Origin: Puniceicoccaceae bacterium Marseille-Q1082
GTDB lineage: Bacteria > Verrucomicrobiota > Verrucomicrobiia > Opitutales > Intestinicryptomonadaceae
Direction of reading: 5' to 3'
Length of the DNA: 32,000 nt
Assembly: GCA_904424815.1 (NCBI GenBank)
Contig: CAJGBI010000001.1
Coordinates: 1,227,671-1,259,670 of the forward strand
In this document: in pieces, positions 10,847 to 29,159 of the stretch
How positions within the stretch are numbered: the stretch's first letter is position 1
Layout: each line of letters opens with the position of its first letter
Notes under the pieces: generated by a model
Database searches by the model: none
What the model saw: the letters and a program-made list of their open reading frames with translations, nothing else
Told to the model about the DNA's origin: nothing
Program-made: the position numbers and the translations under genes

Positions 10847-11745
10847 TGCCAAAAAAACCGGCAGCAAAAAAAGCCTCCACATGGCGCGACCTCAAATCCG
10901 ACGGCGGGAAAAGGCGCCGGAAGATACCGCTGTCGCTGCGCGCCAAGCTGCGGGTTGTCTGGCTGTGGGCGCGCGCGGCTCTCGCGCTCGCGGCGCTCGG
11001 GGGCCTTGGATACGGCGCGTACTTCCTGTACCAAAACGCATTCATCGAAGACATCTTCGCCCCGAAAGACGCGCGCATAAAGCGCATAGAATTTAAAACA
11101 GACGGGCTCGCAACCGCCGAATGGCTCAAAAGCTACCTGAAAATTCCGCCCGACGCCCGCCTCGGCGACGTCAATATTTTCGCGGTAAAAAGCGCGCTCG
11201 AATCCCTGTCGCAAATTGAATCGGCGTCTGTGGAGCGCGCATATCCGGACGCGCTGAAAATCACCCTGACTGAGCTAAAGCCCTTTATGAAGCTCTTTGC
11301 GGACGTCTCCGGAAAGCGGAAAATTTTCATAATGTCGCCCGACGGCAGGTTCTTCGAGCCCTCGTGCGTCCCGCCCGAAATGATAGACGCCATGCCCAGG
11401 CTCGACGGCTGGGCGCCGCGCTTCGACGGCGCGGTTCCGCAGCCCTGCAAGTTCGCTCCGGAAATCGCCGGATTTCTCGGCGCGGCGCACGCAGCCCTCC
11501 CCGCGGTTGCGCGCGGCTGGAAGAGCATAGACGTGTCAGACCTCGGAAGCCTCACCCTGCCCCTGCTGAAAGTCGTCGACGCCTCCGGAATGGAGATAAT
11601 CTTCGCCCCGAAAGACTACAAAAAACAGTTCGGGAGGCTCGAATATATCTTGCGTTATCAGAGGGAAAACCCTTTAACAGTCATAAAGCGCATAGACCTG
11701 TCGATAAAGGGGTGGGCGCCAGTAAAAATCAAGACGACCAAATGA
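10846..11745 (+). CDS. ftsQ: cell division protein FtsQ (POTRA domain)
   Basis: Basic N-terminus, a single TM segment (VVWLWARAALALAALGGLGYGAYFLY), then a POTRA-like IKRIEFKTDG... segment. TAATG overlap with ddl, and position before ftsA. Confidence 0.75.
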   Translation: MPKKPAAKKASTWRDLKSDGGKRRRKIPLSLRAKLRVVWLWARAALALAALGGLGYGAYFLYQNAFIEDIFAPKDARIKRIEFKTDGLATAEWLKSYLKIPPDARLGDVNIFAVKSALESLSQIESASVERAYPDALKITLTELKPFMKLFADVSGKRKIFIMSPDGRFFEPSCVPPEMIDAMPRLDGWAPRFDGAVPQPCKFAPEIAGFLGAAHAALPAVARGWKSIDVSDLGSLTLPLLKVVDASGMEIIFAPKDYKKQFGRLEYILRYQRENPLTVIKRIDLSIKGWAPVKIKTTK

Positions 11746-12944
11746 GCGACAGCAAGACAATAACGGCGTTGGAAATCGGCACCGGAAAGATGCAGGTTTT
11801 CATCGGCGAGATAGTGGACGGCAAAATGCTCAACCTCGTTGGCGTCGGGCAGGCGGCCACCGACGGCGTGAAAAAGGCGGACATCATCGACGTGAAAAAG
11901 GCAGCCGAGCAGGCTCAAACGGCCATAGTCATGGCGGAGCGCTCCTGTTCGGCGCGGATAAAGTCCGTGTGCCTCGGCATAAGCGGAACCCACATACAAG
12001 GCTTCAGAAACATAGGGTCGGCGAACGTTGCGGGCTCCGACGGCATAGTCCGCAAGAGCGACGTTGACCGCGCAAAGGAGGACGCAAAGAGCAAGGCGCT
12101 GCCCGACGGCAGAAGCTATATACACAGGATCTGCTGCGGGTTCTACCTCGACGACGAAAGGTATTGCGTCGACCCCGTCGGCGAGCGCGCCTCGAAGATA
12201 GCGGCGGAATACTGGATGATGCACGGCGACAGCGAAAAAATCCTCACGGCCATGCACGTGGTTCATAGCTTCGGAATGGAGGTGGAATACCTCGTGTTCT
12301 CGGGGCTCGCCTCCGCGATGGCGGCGTCTTCTCCGGTCCAGAAGGAGAACGGGGTGCTGGTCGTGGACATCGGCTGCGGGACGAGCGACTACGCTTTCTA
12401 CAAAAACGGCATTCCCGTGCAGGCGGGCGTAATCCCGATAGGCGGCGACCACATCACCAACGACCTCTCGTTCGGAATACGGCTGAGCCGGAAAAATTCC
12501 GAGCGCATTAAGACCCGCTTCGGAAAGGCGATAATTACCGAAGACGAGCGCAACGTCAAATTCTGGAGCCTCGGCGACAGGCAGATCGGCGACAGAAAAA
12601 TTCCGTTGGAGGCCATAAACAAAGTCATACGCGCGCGCCTGGAAGAGCTGTTTTTGCTGCTGCGCCAGGACATGATAGACCACTTTTCGGAGGGCTCGGT
12701 CAACGAGGTCGTCCTGACGGGCGGAACGTCGAAGCTCAACGGGATATGCGAGCTCGCCGAAGCCGTGCTCGAACGCCCGTGCTCGCTCGGCAAATTCCCG
12801 CCGTCGGTCGCCGAAAACCTGCGCCACCAGGAATTCTCAACCGCGCTCGGGCTGCTCGAATACGCCAGGATGAAGGAGACGAGCGGCGGCTCGAAGAGCG
12901 GGAACTCCATAACCGACAAAATCGCAAAATTTTTTAAAATCTGA
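11742..12944 (+). CDS. ftsA: cell division protein FtsA
   Basis: Start set to ATG 11742 (ATGA overlap with the ftsQ stop). Actin-fold motifs ALEIGTGKM, VVDIGCGTSDY, IPIGGDHITNDL and LTGGTSKLNG. Confidence 0.88.
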   Translation: MSDSKTITALEIGTGKMQVFIGEIVDGKMLNLVGVGQAATDGVKKADIIDVKKAAEQAQTAIVMAERSCSARIKSVCLGISGTHIQGFRNIGSANVAGSDGIVRKSDVDRAKEDAKSKALPDGRSYIHRICCGFYLDDERYCVDPVGERASKIAAEYWMMHGDSEKILTAMHVVHSFGMEVEYLVFSGLASAMAASSPVQKENGVLVVDIGCGTSDYAFYKNGIPVQAGVIPIGGDHITNDLSFGIRLSRKNSERIKTRFGKAIITEDERNVKFWSLGDRQIGDRKIPLEAINKVIRARLEELFLLLRQDMIDHFSEGSVNEVVLTGGTSKLNGICELAEAVLERPCSLGKFPPSVAENLRHQEFSTALGLLEYARMKETSGGSKSGNSITDKIAKFFKI

Positions 12945-16856: not shown

Positions 16857-18274
16857 ACCTTTGCCTCGCTTTTTTTGATTTCCCCGCAACCAGCGGACTT
16901 CATTCCAAAATATTCGAGCGTTTCGAGAATCCTGCGCGGATCCAGCCCCCCGCCGCCCGCGGCTTTATAGACGCCCGTCATAAAACGCCTGCGGCGCGAA
17001 GACTCCACCGCGTTGCGCTGCTGCGCTCCGAGAGCGAAAGCCTCAATGTCGGCCGCGGCGGAGTCGTCGAACACGATGTTTATGTCGGGGTACGAGAGAG
17101 AGAGCTTCCCGAAAAACCTAAGGCGCGGAAGCCTTCCGAAAACGCGCGGAGGAAGCTCTATAACGGCGTCGGCGCATTCGGGGCGGCGCGACAGGGCAGC
17201 CGCGCACGCGCCGGAGCAAAGCACGCTGACCCGCGCGTCGGGGCGCGATGCGCGCAACGCCGCGAGAATCGGGGCTATGGATTCGGCATCGGAAAAACCG
17301 TCCGGAAGCGTGACGAAAATGGAGCTTTTGCGGGGAAGGCTGTCGAGCCCCATGCGCCGCAAAGAATAGTCCAAAATGCTCTTTCCCCCGCGCAGGCGCA
17401 GGGAAGTCCGCTGGTCGGGATGCGTCCGCCACCGCCTGTGCAGCCAAAGCCAGTCAAAGCGCGCGGTCCGGCTCGATTTGAGCTTGTTTTCAAGCCAGAC
17501 ATTGCCCGAATAGGTGATGTCCTCAATTCCCGAGGCGTCGAGAAATTCCCCGTCAACCTCCGACCGCCAAAACCCCGTGCGCCTGGCGTAAAACACGGCG
17601 ACCCGCGCGCCCGTCTTTTCCGCGAGGATTCCCGCAAGCTCTGAGGTGTGGCACACCCGCCCGAAAAAGAGCGACTCGCACCCCGCCCCGCCCGCGTTCT
17701 GGTCGAACAGCACGGCGACGCAGCCGTTTTCCTTTAAGATCCTCGCAGAGTGAAGAATGCCGTCGCGCCTCGAGAGCATCTCAATGCCGAAACGTTGGCG
17801 GCTCTCCCTGACCCACGCCTCCATTCCGGCGGAATCAAACGGCCTGTAAAACACGCCGACAGCCGGCAGCTTCAAATTTCCCGCCAAAAGCGGAAACATT
17901 GTTATCGTTTCCATCATCGCGAAATGCGGAATCATCAGCACGAGCGGATGGGGGTTTTCCGAATACTTTTCGAGCTCCGCCTTCACCGTGCCGCTCAGCT
18001 TCACGCGCCCCGAAAGCCTCGCAACCGACATGTGGGGGCTCGCGACGACAAACAGCGCCATCTCGACCATGCGCGCGCAAGACTCGTACGCGATTTTCAT
18101 TCTCTCGCGCCGCCCCATTTCGGGGAAGCAATGGTAGATGTTGGAAAACGCGACGCGCGTGCGGCGGTTCGGGAAATAGCATATCAGGAATCCGACGGCC
18201 CTGCAAACGCCGCTCATCACGCACTCGGGAGCGTTTGCAAAGACAAACCCCAATATCGAAAGAAGAAATTTCAT
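16853..18274 (-). CDS. lipid A biosynthesis (LpxL/HtrB-family) acyltransferase fused to a C-terminal segment resembling the N-terminal half of a family-9 glycosyltransferase
   Basis: Start set to ATG 18274 (MKFLLSILG...). The ORF-track N-terminus (to 18514) reads through the repeat region. The N-terminal ~300 aa carry the PHFAMME (HX4E) motif and the family-typical [14 protein letters not shown] end. The last ~170 aa align by eye with the heptosyltransferase N-domain ([34 protein letters not shown]...ADAVIELP). Confidence 0.75.
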
Positions 18275-18512
18275 AAAAATTTCCCGCCATCTTATCCCGC
18301 CGCAAAAAAAATGCAAAAAAAAACGGCCCCCGACGAAGAAATCCCCCGCCCCATCGCCAACCATAAGGTTAAAAACAGAAATCCCAATAAAGCCAAATGG
18401 GCAACGACAGCGCACTGCCATTACAGGCGCGAGGTGCACAGACCATAGAAGGGCGAATCCCCTTGCGAAGATCGGATTCGCCAATGCTTCTATCCCCTTC
18501 CCCGCTCCCCAC

Positions 18513-18542
18513 AAAAAAACGAACCTCCCATGAGAGGTTCGT
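18513..18542 (-). terminator. intrinsic terminator T1 of repeat unit
   Basis: Minus strand: ACGAACCTC-TCATGG-GAGGTTCGT followed by T7. Confidence 0.75.
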
Positions 18543-18685
18543 CAACACTTCCGGAGTTCGTTCCGAAAACCCAAGCTTCCCAGATTTGGCGCAATGATTT
18601 TGGAGATAAAAACGGGGCGCAAGCGAAACAAAGGGTTGAAGCGTATTAAACATACGCGAAACTCAACAGTTATCCGTTATCCAAC

Positions 18686-18715
18686 AAAAAAACGAACCTC
18701 CCATGAGAGGTTCGT
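18686..18715 (-). terminator. intrinsic terminator T2 of repeat unit
   Basis: Same 9-bp stem and 6-nt loop, followed by T7 on the minus strand. Confidence 0.75.
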
Positions 18716-18855
18716 CGACACTTCCGGAGTTCGTTCCGAAAACCGCAGGTTCCAGATTTGGCGCAATGATTTTGGAGCTAAAAACGGGGCGCAAGCGAAA
18801 CGGCGGATTGAAGCGTATTAAACATACGCGAAAGTCGCCGTTATCCGTCACCCAC

Positions 18856-18885
18856 AAAAAAACGAACCTCCCATGAGAGGTTCGT
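18856..18885 (-). terminator. intrinsic terminator T3 of repeat unit
   Basis: Same 9-bp stem and 6-nt loop, followed by T7 on the minus strand. Confidence 0.75.
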
Positions 18886-19027
18886 TAACACTTCCGGAGT
18901 TCGTTCCTGAAAACCAAGCTTCCCAGATTTGGCGCAATGATTTTGGAGCTAAAAACGGGGCGCAAGCGAAACGGCGGATTGAAGCGTATTAAACATACGC
19001 GAAACTCAACAGTTATACGTTCCCAAC

Positions 19028-19056
19028 AAAAAACGAACCTCCCATGAGAGGTTCGC
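19028..19056 (-). terminator. intrinsic terminator T4 of repeat unit (first terminator downstream of glgC)
   Basis: Minus strand: GCGAACCTC-TCATGG-GAGGTTCGT followed by T6. The basal pair is G.U on the minus strand only. Confidence 0.75.
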
Positions 19057-19096
19057 TAACACTTCCGGAGTTCGTTCCGAAAAGCCAAGGGTATCC

Positions 19097-19228
19097 GATT
19101 TGGCGCAATGATTTTGGAGCTAAAAACGGGGCGCAAGCGAAACGGCGGATTGAAGCGTATTAAACATACGCGAAAGTCGCCGTTATCGCGCAGCAACTCG
19201 TTTTTAGCCCAAAAGCATTCGCCAAATC
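19097..19228 (-). repeat. 132-nt long inverted repeat (REPIN/MITE-like hairpin) overlapping the glgC stop codon
   Basis: Arms 19097-19128 and 19199-19228 pair over ~29 bp with two bulges and one mismatch. Inner stem AACGGCG/CGCCGTT. Apical hairpin GCGTAT-N5-ATACGC. Confidence 0.85.
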
Positions 19229-20498
19229 AGGTGTGGGTGTTTGCGGGGATTACAGCTGTCTTTGTGACGATGAGTATGCCGTCGCGCACATAGAGGCCGT
19301 CGGATTCCCATTTGTCGGGCTTTCCGTCGGGAGAGAGCCAACAGTTGTCGCCGATGCTCGCGTTTTTGTCGATAATCGCGTTTTCTATGTGGCAGTTTCT
19401 GCCTATGCCGAGGCGCGGGGTCTTGTTGTGGCTGTGAAAGTCGTACATGTCTGCGCCCATCATTATGACGTTTTTCATGTACGTGCCCTCGCCTATTATG
19501 GAGCGCACGCCGACGATACAGCGTTCAAGCGTGGCGTTGCGTATGAGGCATCCGTCGGAGATGTCGCACCTCTCGACGCGGCTGCCGAATATGCGGGCGC
19601 CGGGCAGAAACCTGCTATGGGTGTAAACGGTCTGCCCTTTTTTATAAAAGTCGAACGGGGGAACGTCGTCGGTAAGGGCGAGGTTTGCATCGAAGAACGA
19701 GCGTATGGTGCCGATATCCTCCCAATAGCCGTTAAACACATACGCGCTGAGCTTCTTTTTCCCGAGCATTCCGGGAATCACCTCCTTGCCGAAGTCCATC
19801 TCGCTTCCGCCCATCGCCTCTTCGAGAATTTTTCTTGAGAACACATAGATGCCCATCGACGCCATGCAGTATCCCGCGGGATCGGGATTTTTTATGTCTG
19901 AAATCACGCTTGGGCTCACGAGGAAAGAGTCTATAACCGCGGGATCTTTGGGCTTTTCGGCGAATTCGACTATGTTGAGATCCTGGTCGACCTTCATGAC
20001 GCCGAGGTTCGGAGCCTCCGAGCGCGGCATTGGTTTCGCCGCGATGGTGATGTCCGCTCCGCTTTCAATGTGGGCGTTTATCATCTTGGTGAAATCCATC
20101 TGGTAGAGCTGGTCTCCGGAGAGGATGAGATAGTAGAGGTTTTCGCCCTGGTAGCGCTCGAAATGGTGCATGTTTTTGCGCACGGCGTCGGCGGTGCCCT
20201 GATACCAGCTTCCTCCGGAATCGGTCTGCTCGGCGGCGAGAATATCCACGAACCCCTGTCCGAAAGAATCGAATTTATAAGTCTGCTGGATATGCTTGTG
20301 AAGCGAAGCGGTGTTGAATTGGGAGAGGAGATATATGTGGTCGTAGCCCGAATTTATGCAATTGCTTATCGGGATGTCAACGAGCCTGTACTTCCCCGCT
20401 AGCGGAACCGCCGGCTTGCAGCGGTATTTTGTCAGGGGATAGAGGCGCGTCCCGCGCCCGCCGCCCATGATTATGCTGATTACGTTGTGTCTTGTCAT
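19227..20498 (-). CDS. glgC: glucose-1-phosphate adenylyltransferase
   Basis: Start set to ATG 20498 (MTRHNVISIIMGGGRGTRLYPLTKYRCKPAVP...). It has WYQGTADAV and a C-terminal left-handed beta-helix-type repeat region. The upstream 31 codons of the ORF-track call look non-coding. Confidence 0.92.
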   Translation of the reverse strand: MTRHNVISIIMGGGRGTRLYPLTKYRCKPAVPLAGKYRLVDIPISNCINSGYDHIYLLSQFNTASLHKHIQQTYKFDSFGQGFVDILAAEQTDSGGSWYQGTADAVRKNMHHFERYQGENLYYLILSGDQLYQMDFTKMINAHIESGADITIAAKPMPRSEAPNLGVMKVDQDLNIVEFAEKPKDPAVIDSFLVSPSVISDIKNPDPAGYCMASMGIYVFSRKILEEAMGGSEMDFGKEVIPGMLGKKKLSAYVFNGYWEDIGTIRSFFDANLALTDDVPPFDFYKKGQTVYTHSRFLPGARIFGSRVERCDISDGCLIRNATLERCIVGVRSIIGEGTYMKNVIMMGADMYDFHSHNKTPRLGIGRNCHIENAIIDKNASIGDNCWLSPDGKPDKWESDGLYVRDGILIVTKTAVIPANTHT

Positions 20499-20752
20499 AT
20501 TTCGGAATTTTAGGCGATGGCGTTTTTGACCCGCAATACGCGCGGGAGTTCCGGAAAGGCGGCCCGATCTGCGAAACCTCCCCCTCCGCAAAAACGCGGG
20601 AATTTTTTATCATTATAACCCCCGCAGTTTGCAGGGGATTATCGCATTTCCCCTCCGCAAATCCAGCTTTTTTTGATTATATTTCGCTCTACGTCAAAGA
20701 TTGTGGAATGGTGGAAAAAAAAGAGGGCAAAGAGAATAAAAAATGTTCTACA

Positions 20753-21934
20753 ATGCCCAATGTGTTAATCAAGGGTTACAAGATACTCAGGACAGTAAGA
20801 GTTGGTCAAGACTTTTCGCTTGCGGAAGTTGAGCATAAGCAGTCGGGTATACCCGACTGCTTATGCGGGTCGCATCGTTTGATACATTACGATTCCTACC
20901 GGCGTTATATTAAGCACGTCTCTGAAAACGGAGCTATTTATCATCTCAAGGTAAAATGCAAGCGTTACAAGTGTCTCGATTGCGGAAGGGTCTTTCGCGA
21001 AAGGCTTGAGGGAGTAAGGCCTTACGCTCGTCACTCGGAGAGGTTCAAAAACAGGCTCGTAAGTGAATACGCTCGGAACGTTTGCAATAAGGCTATTGCC
21101 CGGATTTACCGCATATCTGCAAGCACGGTTGAGCGGGCAATCCACAGTAGGTACGAGCAAAAGCTCAAAGAGCAAATCAACTATCCTTGTCCTGAAATTA
21201 TAGGAATAGACGAGCACACAATCCACAAGGGTTACAAGTTTGCGACTACGATAGCCGACTTATCGCACCACAGGGTATACGATGTTATTAAAGGGAAGAG
21301 ACATATCGATATAGCAGGCGCGCTAATGTCGTACAAAGGCAGGGAAAATGTGAAGGTAGTGTGCATGGATTTATCGAGCGGATATCGAAGTATCGTAAGG
21401 AGATGTTTTCCGAGGGCGAAGATAGTAGCGGATAGGTTTCATGTGATACGATTAGTGCTCCACCACTTTATGGAATTTTGCAAGAGTGCGCAGGAAGAAG
21501 TAAAGTGGAAGAGATCGATTACTTATCCTTTGCGGAAAAGGAGAGAGAGGCTAAAAGCGCAAGAGATGGAGCGGCTTAAAAGCTTTTTTAGTGGAAATCC
21601 GGCAATAGAGCTTGCGTACGAATTTAAGGAGCGATTATGCGGGCTATTGAATAAAAAGAGTCAGACGGCAAAGCAATGCAGGGATAACATAAGAAAGTTA
21701 AAGGAAATGATGAAGATAATGAAATACGAAGCGCCGACAGAGTTTGGGAAGCTTGCGGAAACGATAAGCGAATGGTTTGCGCCGATAATAAGAATGTGGA
21801 GATTTACAAAAAATAACGGAATAACGGAGGGCTTCCACCGCAAGATGAAATTAATACAACGCAGAGCCTACGGATACAGAAACTTTGAAAATTACAGACT
21901 GAGAGTCCTCGTGGAATGCGGGGTAAAACTATGA
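20753..21934 (+). CDS. ISL3-family DDE transposase
   Basis: zf-ISL3-like CxC...CxxC (CLCGSH...CLDCG), GIDEH, MDLSSGY and NNGITEGFHRKMKLIQRRAYGYRNFENYRLR. An alternative start at ATG 20708 lies inside the left IR. The ORF-track start at 20492 lies outside the IS and is rejected. Confidence 0.9.
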   Translation: MPNVLIKGYKILRTVRVGQDFSLAEVEHKQSGIPDCLCGSHRLIHYDSYRRYIKHVSENGAIYHLKVKCKRYKCLDCGRVFRERLEGVRPYARHSERFKNRLVSEYARNVCNKAIARIYRISASTVERAIHSRYEQKLKEQINYPCPEIIGIDEHTIHKGYKFATTIADLSHHRVYDVIKGKRHIDIAGALMSYKGRENVKVVCMDLSSGYRSIVRRCFPRAKIVADRFHVIRLVLHHFMEFCKSAQEEVKWKRSITYPLRKRRERLKAQEMERLKSFFSGNPAIELAYEFKERLCGLLNKKSQTAKQCRDNIRKLKEMMKIMKYEAPTEFGKLAETISEWFAPIIRMWRFTKNNGITEGFHRKMKLIQRRAYGYRNFENYRLRVLVECGVKL

Positions 21935-21946
21935 AAGACAAATCTA

Positions 21947-22020
21947 AAAAATCAACCTATTCCACAACCTTTGGTGTTGACCCAAAAATCAACCTATTCC
22001 ACAACCTTTGGTGTTGACCC
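21947..22020 (+). repeat. perfect tandem duplication (2 x 37 bp) of the IS right terminal repeat
   Basis: AAAAATCAACCTATTCCACAACCTTTGGTGTTGACCC occurs at 21947-21983 and again at 21984-22020. Confidence 0.9.
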
Positions 22021-22040
22021 AAATTTCGGGCAAATCCCAA

Positions 22041-22111
22041 TTCCCCGGCAGGGATTCGAACCCCGACTAGATGAACCAAAATCATCTGTGCTACCATTAC
22101 ACCACCAGGGA
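22041..22111 (-). tRNA. tRNA-Gln (anticodon UUG)
   Basis: Hand-folded cloverleaf on the minus strand: acceptor TCCCTGG/CCGGGGA (one G.U), D arm GTGT-AATGGTA-GCAC, anticodon arm GATGA-TTTTGGT-TCATC, T arm CGGGG-TTCGAAT-CCCTG, discriminator A. No encoded CCA. Confidence 0.85.
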
Positions 22112-22127: not shown

Positions 22128-22200
22128 TGGAGATGATCGGGTTCGAACCGACGACCCCCACAATGCCATTGTGGTGCTCTTCCAACTGAGCTACATCCCC
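22128..22200 (-). tRNA. tRNA-Ala (anticodon GGC)
   Basis: Cloverleaf on the minus strand: acceptor GGGGATG/CATCTCC with the G3.U70 alanine identity pair, D arm GCTC-AGTTGGAA-GAGC, anticodon arm CCACA-ATGGCAT-TGTGG, T arm GTCGG-TTCGAAC-CCGAT. No encoded CCA. Confidence 0.9.
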
Positions 22201-26703: not shown

Positions 26704-26816
26704 TTTTTCAGAACAGTTCCGAAATATTAAAAATATAAGCGAGAGAATTCTTTAATTTCTTCCAACTCTCCAACAAAAAAATACAATCCAGGCGCATTGG
26801 CTTTGCCAATCGCCAA

Positions 26817-26897
26817 GGGGCGGCAGGGTCGCTTCTATTGAAAGGGACGGCAGGGCCGCTTCCATTGAAGGGGACGGCAGGGCCGCTTCCATTGAAG
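26817..26897. repeat. 3 x 27-bp tandem mini-repeat
   Basis: GGGGCGGCAGGGTCGCTTCTATTGAAA, then GGGACGGCAGGGCCGCTTCCATTGAAG twice. Related single units lie at 27278-27305 and 27609-27662. Confidence 0.85.
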
Positions 26898-26959
26898 GGG
26901 CTAACGCCCCTTACGAAGATTGGCTTCGCCAATGCTTCTATCCCCTCTCCGTTCCCCGC

Positions 26960-26989
26960 AAAAAAACGAACCTCCCATGGGAGGTTCGT
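26960..26989 (-). terminator. intrinsic terminator Ta of repeat unit
   Basis: Minus strand: ACGAACCTCC-CATG-GGAGGTTCGT (perfect 10-bp stem) followed by T7. Confidence 0.75.
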
Positions 26990-27368
26990 TAATACTTCCG
27001 GAATTCGTTCCGAAAACCAAGGGTTTCCGATTTGGCACAATGAAAACGAAAGCTTATTTTATCCGAAGCGCAGCGAGGCTATAAAATAAGGCTTTCGGGA
27101 AGGATAAAATGCGCTAGCATTTTATTCGGATATATACAAAACTCCATATGCGGAAACTTCGGGGGCAGGCGCATTGGCTTTGCCAATCGCCAGGGGGCTT
27201 GCCCCCTCTGCGGCAGGCGCGCCCCGCGCCCGCGCAGCGCAACCAAGCCAGCGAATCCATTTTGGATGAAGAGCGAGGGCGGGCGGCGGTGCCGCTTCCA
27301 TAGAAGGGGCTGGCGCCCCTTACGAAGATTGGCTTCGCCAATGCTTCTATCCCCTCTCCATTCCCCAC

Positions 27369-27398
27369 AAAAAAACGAACCTCCCATGAGAGGTTCGT
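27369..27398 (-). terminator. intrinsic terminator Tb of repeat unit
   Basis: Minus strand: ACGAACCTC-TCATGG-GAGGTTCGT followed by T7. Confidence 0.75.
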
Positions 27399-27747
27399 TA
27401 ATACTTCCAAAATTCGTTCTGAAAACCAAAGGTTCCCGATTTGGCGTAATGAAAACGAAAGCTTATTTTATCCGAAGCGCAGCGAGGCTATAAAATAAGG
27501 CTTTCGGGAAGGATAAAATGCGCTAGCATTTTACCCCGCAGGGGTGAGAACAGCGCGGATTGCGCGCAGCGCAACCAAGCGAGCGAATCCATTTTGGATG
27601 AAGAGCGAGGGCGGCACGGGCCGCCAGCCATTGAAGGGGGCGGCGGTGCCGCTTCCATAGAAGGGGCTGACGCCCCTTACGCCCATTGCTTTGCAATAGG
27701 GCTATCCTCACTATTTCGGAGTTCGTTTTAAAAACCAAAGGTTCCCC

Positions 27748-27879
27748 GATTTGGCGCAATGCTTTTGGATGAAGAGCGAGTATAGGGAAGCCGCCAAGGG
27801 CGCGTGGCGTATTCGACATACGCGAGCGGTCTTGGCGGCTTCCCTAACGGAGCTATTCGCCAAAAGCATTCGCCAAATC
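27748..27879 (-). repeat. 132-nt long inverted repeat (REPIN/MITE-like hairpin) 5 nt downstream of the MFS stop codon
   Basis: Outer arms GATTTGGCGCAATGCTTTTGG (27748-27768) and CCAAAAGCATTCGCCAAATC (27860-27879). Inner 16-bp perfect stem TAGGGAAGCCGCCAAG/CTTGGCGGCTTCCCTA. Apical GCGTAT-TCGAC-ATACGC. Confidence 0.85.
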
Positions 27880-27884
27880 GTGGA

Positions 27885-29159
27885 TTAGGATTCTTCGTAG
27901 TCCTTATCAAAGAAAAAGAACTTTGCTATCATAAGCAGCGCGACGGCTGAAAGGCAGCATATGGAGAGGCTCGCGATGGCGTACTGGGGATTCAGCATGT
28001 CGCGAATCCATCCGAGAACGGTGGGGGAAACTGAGCCGATTATGAAGCCGAAGCACAGCATTATCCCCATGCCGGTCGCCCTATACTTTGGCTGGACAAC
28101 GTCGAAGAGGGAGGCGAATAGGCTCGAGTCGTATACGCCCCTTGAAAATCCGAAGAAGAAAAGCGAGACATAGCAGAGAATGTCGTTTCCGAGAAACGCC
28201 ATGAGAACGGCAAACGGCGCCGTCAGCAGAAAGCCGACGGAGGTAGTCTCGAAGCGTATGACTTTTCTGCCTACCGCGGCGAGCCTGTCGGTTATGCGGC
28301 AGCCTATCATTATTCCGATAAACGCCCCTATGTACGACCATATAACGGCGTTGAACGCGGCGGCGGCGGGCTCCAAGCCGTGGACTTCCTGGAGGAAGTC
28401 GGGCATCCACGTCTTGTATCCGATGTCTATGCACACGTTCATTCCGAACACGAGCCCGAGTATTATGGCGGACGGCTTGCGAACCATCACAAGCAGCGCG
28501 TCTTTAAGGGTTGCCGCATCGTCGCCTGCGGGCGACTTTTTCGCCATGAGCTCGCGCGAATAGCGCATCAGAAATGATAGCACCAGCGCCCATATTATGC
28601 CGGCGCCGCCGACGGAGAAGAACGCGAGCCGCCAGCCCTCATAGCCGCCGACGCTCGGAATGTTTCCGATATAGCCCGCGAACAGGCTGCACACTATTAT
28701 GCCCAGATACTGCGCCGTCTGCAAAATTGAAAATGCGGTGGAGCGGTTCTTTTCAAAGTGCTGCCCCAGAAGCGACGACGCCGGCGGATAGTAGCACCCC
28801 TGCCCCAGTCCGTTCAGCACGCCGTAGGTGAAAATCATAAGCCCGATGCTCGCCACAAATCCCGAGAGGAATATGCCCGAGCAGAAAGTGAGAACTCCAA
28901 AGACTATCATCCACTTTCTGCGCAGGAAGTCGCTGGCGAGCCCTGAAAACAGAACGGTGACACCGTAAGTGAAAGCGAAAGCCGTCATCACCGCGCCCAT
29001 TTTTGCGGAACTGCCCTCGCCGAAATACTCTTTTATCTGCGGCAGAATCGAAGGGTATATCTGCCTCGATCCCTGGTGAATGAAGTATGCGACCCACAGC
29101 AGCGCCAGCAGCATCCATTTGTACATTTCCTCGTGGCTTTCAAGTCTTCTCAATTTCAT
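27885..29159 (-). CDS. MFS transporter (substrate unknown)
   Basis: 424 aa with ~12 predicted TM segments and the MFS loop 2-3 motif GLASDFLRRKW. Confidence 0.85.
   Translation of the reverse strand: MKLRRLESHEEMYKWMLLALLWVAYFIHQGSRQIYPSILPQIKEYFGEGSSAKMGAVMTAFAFTYGVTVLFSGLASDFLRRKWMIVFGVLTFCSGIFLSGFVASIGLMIFTYGVLNGLGQGCYYPPASSLLGQHFEKNRSTAFSILQTAQYLGIIVCSLFAGYIGNIPSVGGYEGWRLAFFSVGGAGIIWALVLSFLMRYSRELMAKKSPAGDDAATLKDALLVMVRKPSAIILGLVFGMNVCIDIGYKTWMPDFLQEVHGLEPAAAAFNAVIWSYIGAFIGIMIGCRITDRLAAVGRKVIRFETTSVGFLLTAPFAVLMAFLGNDILCYVSLFFFGFSRGVYDSSLFASLFDVVQPKYRATGMGIMLCFGFIIGSVSPTVLGWIRDMLNPQYAIASLSICCLSAVALLMIAKFFFFDKDYEES

Follow-up and report, generated by a model that had tools for sequence, protein, structure and literature searches.

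A tandem array of about 170-bp units lies in the gap between glgC and an lpxL-like gene in Puniceicoccaceae bacterium Marseille-Q1082, a member of the Opitutales. We analyzed this array within a stretch of 32,000 nucleotides of contig CAJGBI010000001.1 (the window, numbered from its first letter), in which both genes and the array are on the minus strand. The array is probably a mosaic repeat of the BOX/BIME/SPRITE kind that was locally amplified at glgC by unequal recombination. The family to which it belongs is, by what we consider the likeliest account of the observations as a whole, a dispersed modular repeat specific to one lineage of gut Opitutales (the CAG-312 / Candidatus Merdousia group). 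As in interspersed mosaic repeats of the BOX or BIME type, many copies are present, with recurrent modules and a variable inner number. Read from its sequence, the architecture of the array is a-[X-b-h-T]n-E.

The element at the end of glgC

In the sense of the upstream gene, we propose that the canonical element begins with a 20-nt 5′ arm (a) at or inside the stop codon, continues through a variable yet base-paired interior with a small apical hairpin (X) and ends its predicted hairpin of about 132 nt with a 21-nt 3′ arm (b, the ‘box’). A short tail with a small hairpin (h) and a putative unidirectional intrinsic terminator (T) would follow, usually succeeded by a further module (E). At glgC, the inner block of 171 bp (apex, box, small hairpin and terminator) appears to have been amplified in tandem to four copies. 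The parts of the array are as follows.

19227..20498, minus strand: glgC, glucose-1-phosphate adenylyltransferase, 423 aa (Pfam NTP_transferase and LbH_GLGC; C-terminus aligned with relatives)
19097..19228, minus strand: complete 132-nt hairpin of unit 1 (arm pairing, folding, compensatory changes)
19228-19209, minus strand: 5′ arm a of unit 1, GATTTGGCGAATGCTTTTGG, starting inside the glgC stop (T|GATTTGGCGAATGCTTTTGG, the bar marking the junction)
19171-19155, minus strand: apex of unit 1, GCGTATGTTTAATACGC
19117-19097, minus strand: 3′ arm b of unit 1, the ‘box’ of the earlier note, CCAAAATCATTGCGCCAAATC
18511..19175, minus strand: inner block (apex X, box b, small hairpin h and terminator T) repeated in tandem (Tandem Repeats Finder, repeat search, alignment)
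19032-19230, minus strand: unit U1, including the 5′ arm
18861-19031, minus strand: unit U2
18691-18860, minus strand: unit U3
18518-18690, minus strand: unit U4
19026..19057, minus strand: predicted terminator T1, AGCGAACCTCTCATGGGAGGTTCGTT plus T-run, the first one reached by a glgC transcript (hairpin 19057-19032, -15.1 kcal/mol)
18854..18886, minus strand: predicted terminator T2 (hairpin 18886-18861)
18684..18716, minus strand: predicted terminator T3 (hairpin 18716-18691)
18511..18543, minus strand: predicted terminator T4 (hairpin 18543-18518)
18443..18495, minus strand: E module, GGGGATAGAAG...CTTCTATGG, the usual post-terminator module, which closes the array and is shared with locus 2

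An earlier note made from the letters of the window had described an array of roughly 170-bp units with minus-strand terminators, and our searches recovered it. Tandem Repeats Finder reports a period of 171 with 3.9 copies and 91% matches (18511-19175), the four hairpins are present with the terminator-to-terminator spacing of 173, 170 and 171 bp given there, and the four modules occur in the described order in each of the four units. Pfam also agrees with the flanking genes named, identifying GlgC on one side and a lipid A acyltransferase on the other. The glgC stop codon TGA occupies 19229-19227, and its GA provides the first two bases of the 5′ arm of the repeat. T1-T4 each have 11 pairs, a 4-nt loop and a run of T6-7 (about -15 kcal/mol), with the U-run on the minus strand only, and are thus predicted to be rho-independent terminators, with a G+C-containing stem-loop followed by a U-run on the transcribed strand. 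The ATAGAAG...CTTCTAT module said to be common to the array and locus 2 has its repeat match at 26.8-27.9 kb, where the E module aligns to 26907-26966 and 27316-27375 with 80% identity. In a scan with Rfam 15, only two tRNAs in the window scored above the gathering threshold and no family did in the array region; the best match there at a permissive threshold was Phe_leader (20.6 bits against the 55 needed, E ~1), driven by the terminator. This agrees with the earlier note, in which the sequence was not recognized as any familiar noncoding RNA family.

What had been overlooked is that the 20 nt starting within the glgC stop are reverse-complementary to the ‘box’. With this 5′ arm paired to the box, unit 1 forms a complete hairpin of 132 nt. 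The 213-nt segment comprising the hairpin, tail and terminator folds with -97 kcal/mol (z = -8.3), and the 132-nt hairpin by itself with -64.3 kcal/mol. Units 2-4 are without the 5′ arm, and the folding of unit 2 is at the level of shuffled sequence (z = -0.49), so that the description of the array as a series of structured units applies to unit 1 and fails for unit 2. The alternating inner stem, previously read as pairing maintained between units, is not covariation within the array, since the TCAA with which the GTTGA version pairs occurs in every unit. Genuine compensatory changes appear only when copies of other loci are compared.

The element thus sits in the 3′ untranslated region of glgC in sense orientation, with the terminator U-runs on that strand only. 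Transcripts of glgC would be expected to fold the long hairpin right behind the terminating ribosome and then to end at T1, leaving units 2-4 as mostly untranscribed by-products that would serve at most as back-up terminators. A hairpin so near the stop may influence how stable the mRNA 3′ end is or how translation terminates, as shown for stop-proximal REP sequences of Escherichia coli (PMC12306157).

Two annotation matters concern the far end of the array. A 94-codon ATG open reading frame (ORF) at 18369-18653 (minus strand) overlaps unit 4 and the E module; it consists of repeat sequence, is probably no gene, and might be called by automatic annotation. The start of the lpxL-like gene is ambiguous: the earlier note placed it at the ATG at 18274, the NCBI gene call in a metagenome-assembled genome (MAG) (511 aa) corresponds to an ATG near 18364, and the longest ORF begins at TTG 18514, inside terminator T4.

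Dispersed copies, stop codons and covariation

To survey the family we scanned for the arm motif in one genome per species; this census is based on short-read MAGs, so all copy numbers are lower bounds. At least 99 stretches were found in the genome collection, 82 of them in five related Opitutales MAGs and 79 of these in just three (Candidatus Merdousia sp. MAG11642, Opitutales HGM23550 and ERR414309-bin.19). Scattered singletons make up the other 17, with about nine chance matches expected by our own estimate from motif information content and database size. Counts of 5′ and 3′ arms in the loci examined are at least 35 and 29 in MAG11642, 15 and 22 in HGM23550, and 13 and 10 in ERR414309-bin.19. 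The module order a-X-b-h-T-E recurs at related loci in both orientations. Complete hairpins number 29, most of them 131-133 nt and some 203-368 nt long, with the same tail and terminator behind nearly every one. There are 33 copies of the E module in related loci; it comes after the U-run in 21 of the 51 scored terminator tails, and a variant form does so in many others. The element at guaA is single-copy and measures about 205 nt from the stop codon to the U-run. With 20/21-nt inverted arms, a 132-nt hairpin in an element of about 205 nt and no consistent open frame, the family has traits of a miniature inverted-repeat transposable element (MITE). The recurrence of these modules dozens of times in related genomes, with their order kept, bears out the earlier suggestion of a BIME/REP-like mosaic that spreads a terminator.

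A second complete hairpin lies in the window itself, at locus 2, behind the gene of an MFS transporter (27885-29159).

27748..27879, minus strand: second complete 132-nt hairpin, starting 5 nt past the TAA of the MFS transporter gene
26790..27747, minus strand: remainder of locus 2, a mosaic of repeat modules (repeat and motif searches)
27700-27747, minus strand: tail without a terminator
27374-27399 and 26965-26990, minus strand: terminators of two blocks, each with box variant, small hairpin and terminator
26815-26900: 27-bp tandem repeat, 3.2 copies, AAGGGACGGCAGGGCCGCTTCCATTGA
26872-27124 and 27281-27533: 409-bp segmental duplication (94%), carrying box variant, small hairpin, terminator and E module

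Its arms and apex are those of unit 1, and its interior is different and fully compensated (GGGAAGCCGCCAAG / CTTGGCGGCTTCCC). The 186-nt segment folds with -91.3 kcal/mol (z = -9.7) and the 132-nt hairpin by itself with -79.6 kcal/mol. Look-ups of the exact proteins show independent assemblies ending 25-83 nt past the glgC or MFS stop, inside the hairpin; for the MFS gene we examined six of seven contigs, and the sequence of all six ends 35-83 nt past the stop. Two further observations come from L001, a strain with an identical GlgC. An E-type array related to locus 2 comes after its two-unit glgC array (11660-11830). At L001:11980-12198 (minus strand) there is a 5′ arm fused to the stop of pntB, with a different interior (GAAAGAGCCCGC...GCGGGCTCTTTC) and no canonical 3′ arm after it; the 5′ arm therefore also exists as a separate module.

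The relation of the 5′ arm to stop codons is regular. An arm was scored as stop-anchored if a same-strand ORF of at least 150 codons had its stop within -15 to +31 of the arm start, which could be tested for the 61 arms that had sufficient sequence upstream. Of these, 43 (70%) are anchored, compared with 5.4% of random positions (binomial p ~1e-40), none of 19 on the other strand and none of the 45 3′ arms. In 25 of the 43 the stop is a TGA whose GA forms the first two bases of the arm (T|GA overlap), and in five more the distance between the end of the stop and the arm start is 1 or 0 nt. The other anchored forms are TA|G or a complete stop followed by GATTTGG, and eight genes read into the arm. 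Only about three arms lie 15-60 nt downstream of a stop, and most of the arms outside the 43 have another repeat module before them. Pfam searches of the stop-anchored ORFs identified real housekeeping genes in 16 of 17 cases, with domains that reach the last residues; in GuaA, the conserved ...PPATIEWE immediately precedes TGATTTGGCG. The genes for Asd (L095:4900-5982) and an SppA-like protein (L024:93-1988) have no native stop, and both of these unrelated proteins gain the tail DLANAFGE*, which is the 5′ arm read in its second frame. TGA accounts for 76% of stops adjoining the element and 44% of those elsewhere (Fisher p = 0.003), and base C is enriched at -2 (CT|GATTTGG) relative to 24% C before ordinary stops. 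Crude ORF calls around the terminators produced spurious ORFs on both sides in this 58% G+C DNA, from which terminator polarity could not be read.

Empty sites confirm that the junction at glgC and guaA lies at the native stop. In relatives whose GlgC is 91%, 82% and 72% identical, the gap is short and holds a single ordinary terminator and no element; their genes end in TAA or TAG, and in the 82% and 72% cases the stop has the codon position that it has in the window. At guaA, relatives with 92%, 88% and 85% identical GuaA end in ...tgg gaa TAA and continue into ordinary sequence. The left junction at native stops is T|GATTTGG, and the empty sites are too diverged to fix the right boundary or a target-site duplication. 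A side observation concerns the species with 88% identical GuaA, which has no element: its region past guaA holds other local repeats (L119:3540-3897 and L120:3540-4045). L119 has two copies of CAAAGGCGAAGCCCTTGACG, L120 has a duplicated block of about 150 bp, and the length of the region differs by 148 bp between the two samples. Related species may have 3′-end repeats of their own.

The fusion of 5′ arms to stops could be due to insertion specificity, to selection or to both. One reading, which we hold to be rather doubtful, is that the element is a 3′-end cassette of hairpin and terminator, with the stop codon itself determining where its 5′ junction falls; alternatively, random insertions would have been filtered by tolerance. 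Should the precision of the junction stem from an insertion or replacement mechanism, or from selection at the site of ribosome termination, it would amount to a new coupling between a repeat and translation termination, distinct from the looser stop-proximity of E. coli REPs, and the element would be a natural portable ‘stop + hairpin + terminator’ module.

Covariation was assessed on an alignment of 21 distinct hairpins with 43 consensus pairs. Double compensatory changes occur in 19 of the 43 pairs, and the outer 20 bp are invariant. We also compared eight orthologous gene ends between species, and in all eight the element is present at the same stop. The arms are 95-100% identical, the last 300 nt of coding sequence 81-96%, and third codon positions 62-89% (in the seven pairs for which an ungapped measure is valid), a pattern that indicates constraint or concerted evolution on the arms. 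The interior is of a different subfamily in five of the eight, and one subfamily dominates each genome, which indicates either interior exchange or repeated replacement at fixed sites. A protein-coding role of the hairpin was rejected: the frame in T|GA phase is often open but inconsistent among subfamilies, and the compensatory changes argue against it.

The strand on which the pairing acts is less clear. The earlier argument for a minus-strand RNA, based on G.U as opposed to A.C at the foot of one terminator, does not generalize. Folding of 28 complete hairpins is about 8 kcal/mol better for the antisense strand, and the wobble juxtapositions are 91 of the antisense type versus 58 of the sense type, inherited at a few positions. 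We dropped this argument, as an unbiased arm-against-arm alignment and the minimum free energies of the two strands pointed away from the sense strand or gave no clear signal.

Copy number, neighborhood and competing explanations

The exact 423-aa GlgC is on record in three assemblies, one with four units, one with two and one that is broken in the arm. Among strains with identical GlgC, L001 has two units and both L002 and the window have four; the unit variants also come in a different order. The two-unit strain also has a different downstream neighbor: in L001 (ENA ERZ27274822), glgC is flanked by a ParA-like gene and RNase III upstream and by a convergent pntB downstream, and in the window by an ISL3 element and tRNAs upstream and the lpxL-like gene downstream. 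Different genes on both sides of glgC despite identical GlgC suggest rearrangements at the repeats. As for the origin of the array, each of its junctions reads U-run ... GGATAAC(GGCG / TGTTG) ... apex, and the motif GATAACGGCG is found in the inner 5′ arm of the glgC-type hairpin and also past the U-run of the single-copy guaA element. Amplification probably proceeded through unequal recombination between copies of GGATAACGGCG, in the inner hairpin arm and just past the terminator; because these two short direct repeats are about 171 bp apart, unequal exchange explains the 171-bp unit. In L031, L069 and L094 the terminator is likewise followed by the start of another unit, at which the contigs break.

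Directly upstream of glgC, at 20492-22023, is an ISL3-family transposase gene (Pfam DDE_Tnp_ISL3). At its right end, 37 bp are perfectly duplicated in tandem (21947-22020) next to two tRNA genes on the minus strand (22041-22111 and 22128-22200). The NCBI MAG contig with the same glgC stops 468 bp upstream of the gene, probably at the ISL3 element.

The earlier note had listed four paralogous small-RNA genes, with each 171-bp unit independently transcribed to its own terminator. A good intrinsic terminator does close each unit, all units have the same direction, and tandem small-RNA paralogues exist in other bacteria. Against this, no promoter-like site was found on the minus strand between 17800 and 19800 (a weak test, as Verrucomicrobiota promoters may differ), units 2-4 are without structure beyond the terminator (z = -0.49 for unit 2), and the units represent shortened versions of a repeat that occurs at the ends of dozens of genes. 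With two or four copies in strains of identical GlgC and none in the relative with 91% identical GlgC, we regard such genes as extremely unlikely. A stack of terminators selected as an insulator, which would shield lipid A acyltransferase-purT from glgC read-through, fits four co-oriented terminators between two co-oriented genes and the four units kept in two independent assemblies (the window and L002). It is nonetheless unlikely, because L001 manages with two units and a different downstream neighbor, most other copies of the family have one terminator, and the order of unit variants differs between strains as neutral unequal exchange predicts. Insulation may be a side effect of the array, and nothing requires the insulator reading.

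A role for the hairpins in recombination, as substrates of a site-specific or single-strand DNA recombinase somewhat like attC, would account for interior exchange and rearrangements. It draws on the invariance of the arms, including a conserved single-base bulge (one extra base in every 3′ arm), the variable yet paired interiors, the differing subfamilies at orthologous stops with one dominating per genome, the changed glgC neighborhood on both sides and the slightly better folding of the antisense strand. However, homologous recombination between dispersed repeats suffices for both the interior swaps and the rearrangements, no integrase is nearby, and the hosts are housekeeping genes of up to about 1,140 codons instead of cassettes. 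The integron core sites RYYYAAC / GTTRRRY are in neither arm; integron attC sites as such were rejected, given arm sequences of GATTTGGCG...CGCCAAATC and dispersed housekeeping genes as hosts. Recombination sites of this kind thus seem very unlikely to us.

More plausible than these, if on balance still improbable, is a purely selfish MITE, non-autonomous and moved by an unidentified transposase with a short target preference (e.g. T|A or T|GA), in which the hairpin has no role as RNA. The sense position at stops would then come solely from purifying selection, with insertions elsewhere, or in the orientation that puts a terminator before a gene, being lost. The 20-bp terminal inverted arms, small size, missing coding capacity, high copy number and strand-symmetric pairing all agree with it, as does the C enrichment at -2, which suggests a sequence preference. 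Insertions near a C-terminus would be tolerated because the arm supplies stops in two frames (TGA at its first base and TAG at +24), and the element-encoded tails of Asd and SppA fit this as well. Tolerance, however, predicts a broad range of distances past stops in place of the sharp peak seen at the 2-nt overlap; the arms are more conserved than synonymous sites at orthologous positions across species, and neither a target-site duplication nor a parent element was found among the loci covered. Many copies are indeed present, as the earlier note expected of a plain selfish repeat, but they are strictly polar to genes and the hairpin covaries. Other origins were considered and rejected: the ends of the neighboring ISL3 element are unrelated to the arms, viral contigs gave one match (chance level), and the left junction in most copies is T|GATTTGG, not TA|element as in TA-target (mariner / IS630-type) insertion. 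No arm pair encloses a gene in the loci examined.

Several points weigh against a mobile 3′-end mosaic repeat amplified at glgC. Copy numbers are lower bounds only, with other arrays ending at contig ends, and some of the 43 anchored copies are orthologous among the three MAGs, which brings the independent loci nearer 35. The pairing is symmetric, and the strand test is inconclusive or slightly in favor of the antisense strand. As hairpin pairing is strand-symmetric, its conservation could reflect a process at the DNA level, such as a cruciform, a single-stranded DNA hairpin or arm-to-arm conversion, instead of a function of the RNA. Termination at T1 and hairpin formation in RNA are predictions from the DNA, and the sigma-70-like promoter scan of the minus strand, which was negative for 17800-19800, may be of a type that does not fit Verrucomicrobiota. 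Mobility is deduced from distribution, since no transposase, target-site duplication or exact right boundary was found, whole genomes not having been searched for transposases.

A locally amplified mosaic repeat removes a tempting false positive, the ‘tandem small-RNA gene cluster’, and explains assembly breaks at gene ends in these common human and animal gut Verrucomicrobiota. It also adds a previously undescribed family from an under-studied phylum that joins a covarying hairpin, a portable terminator and a variable-number tandem core, features that are usually separate. It is fused in sense orientation to the stops of housekeeping genes with single-nucleotide regularity, and different species conserve it at orthologous sites. 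Two questions are now testable: whether hairpins abutting stops tune termination or mRNA 3′ stability, and how repeats come to occupy stops so precisely. For practical use, the variable array is a ready strain-typing marker, and the hairpin-terminator module is a candidate compact 3′-end part for engineering these bacteria.

Comparison with known repeat systems

The combination of a covarying 132-nt hairpin, a built-in terminator, gene-sense polarity and majority stop fusion is, as far as we could find, undescribed. BOX, REP and ERIC were compared by description instead of direct sequence comparison, so the element works like these repeats and is not assigned to them. BOX elements of Streptococcus pneumoniae have the structure boxA-(boxB)n-boxC, with an inner tandem module whose copy number varies among strains via unequal crossover; they have a predicted RNA fold and are often co-transcribed with neighboring genes (Croucher et al. 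2011, PMC3049150). Our element similarly has fixed end modules and a tandem core, a-[X-b-h-T]n-E, with n = 2 or 4 at glgC. It differs in its unrelated sequence and host phylum, in an inner block that holds a full intrinsic terminator, and in being strictly polar to the upstream gene and fused to its stop, a fusion not described for BOX. SPRITE repeats are interspersed, resemble an intrinsic terminator, are enriched near the 3′ ends of coding sequences and have been proposed as co-opted terminators (PMC3049150). A SPRITE is a single 18-bp duplex with a U-rich tract, whereas the element described here is a 132-nt hairpin that starts at the stop and is followed by a conventional 11-bp terminator.

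In E. coli, many REP sequences are found no more than 15 nt from a stop, a position in which they make ribosomes stall and reduce translation (Liang, Rudd and Deutscher 2015, as summarized in PMC12306157). REP and BIME sequences are, like our element, extragenic palindromic repeats that form mosaics in 3′ untranslated regions. By inspection, the arms are without the REP GTAG signature, and REPs are palindromes of 20-40 nt in alternating orientation within BIMEs and with no terminator. Stop overlap has not been reported as their commonest arrangement, as it is for our element. ERIC / IRU (RU-1) sequences of enterobacteria are imperfect palindromes of about 127 bp in transcribed intergenic regions (Delihas 2007, PMC2759123), and are sometimes fused to gene 3′ ends, replacing the native stop and adding element-encoded residues (PMC2759123). 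The DLANAFGE* tails resemble these fusions; ERIC fusions are occasional, in contrast to the majority seen here (70% of arms), where the terminator is also part of the element.

The attC sites of integrons form hairpins of about 60-140 nt in which the ends and certain unpaired bases are conserved and the interior varies but stays paired; they come immediately behind the stop codon of the preceding gene and in many cases overlap it. Our element shares the position directly at the stop, the conserved arms and the paired variable interior; unlike attC, it has no RYYYAAC / GTTRRRY and no integrase or cassette array, and is found at housekeeping genes scattered over the genome. Correia elements of Neisseria are inverted-repeat elements of about 100-150 bp that duplicate a TA target, are co-transcribed and affect termination and processing. 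MIRUs of Mycobacterium are tandem repeats in intergenic DNA that vary in copy number, and their ends overlap the flanking stop and start codons. In contrast to the element described here, Correia elements are not stop-anchored, and MIRUs lie between operon genes, contain small ORFs and have no terminators.

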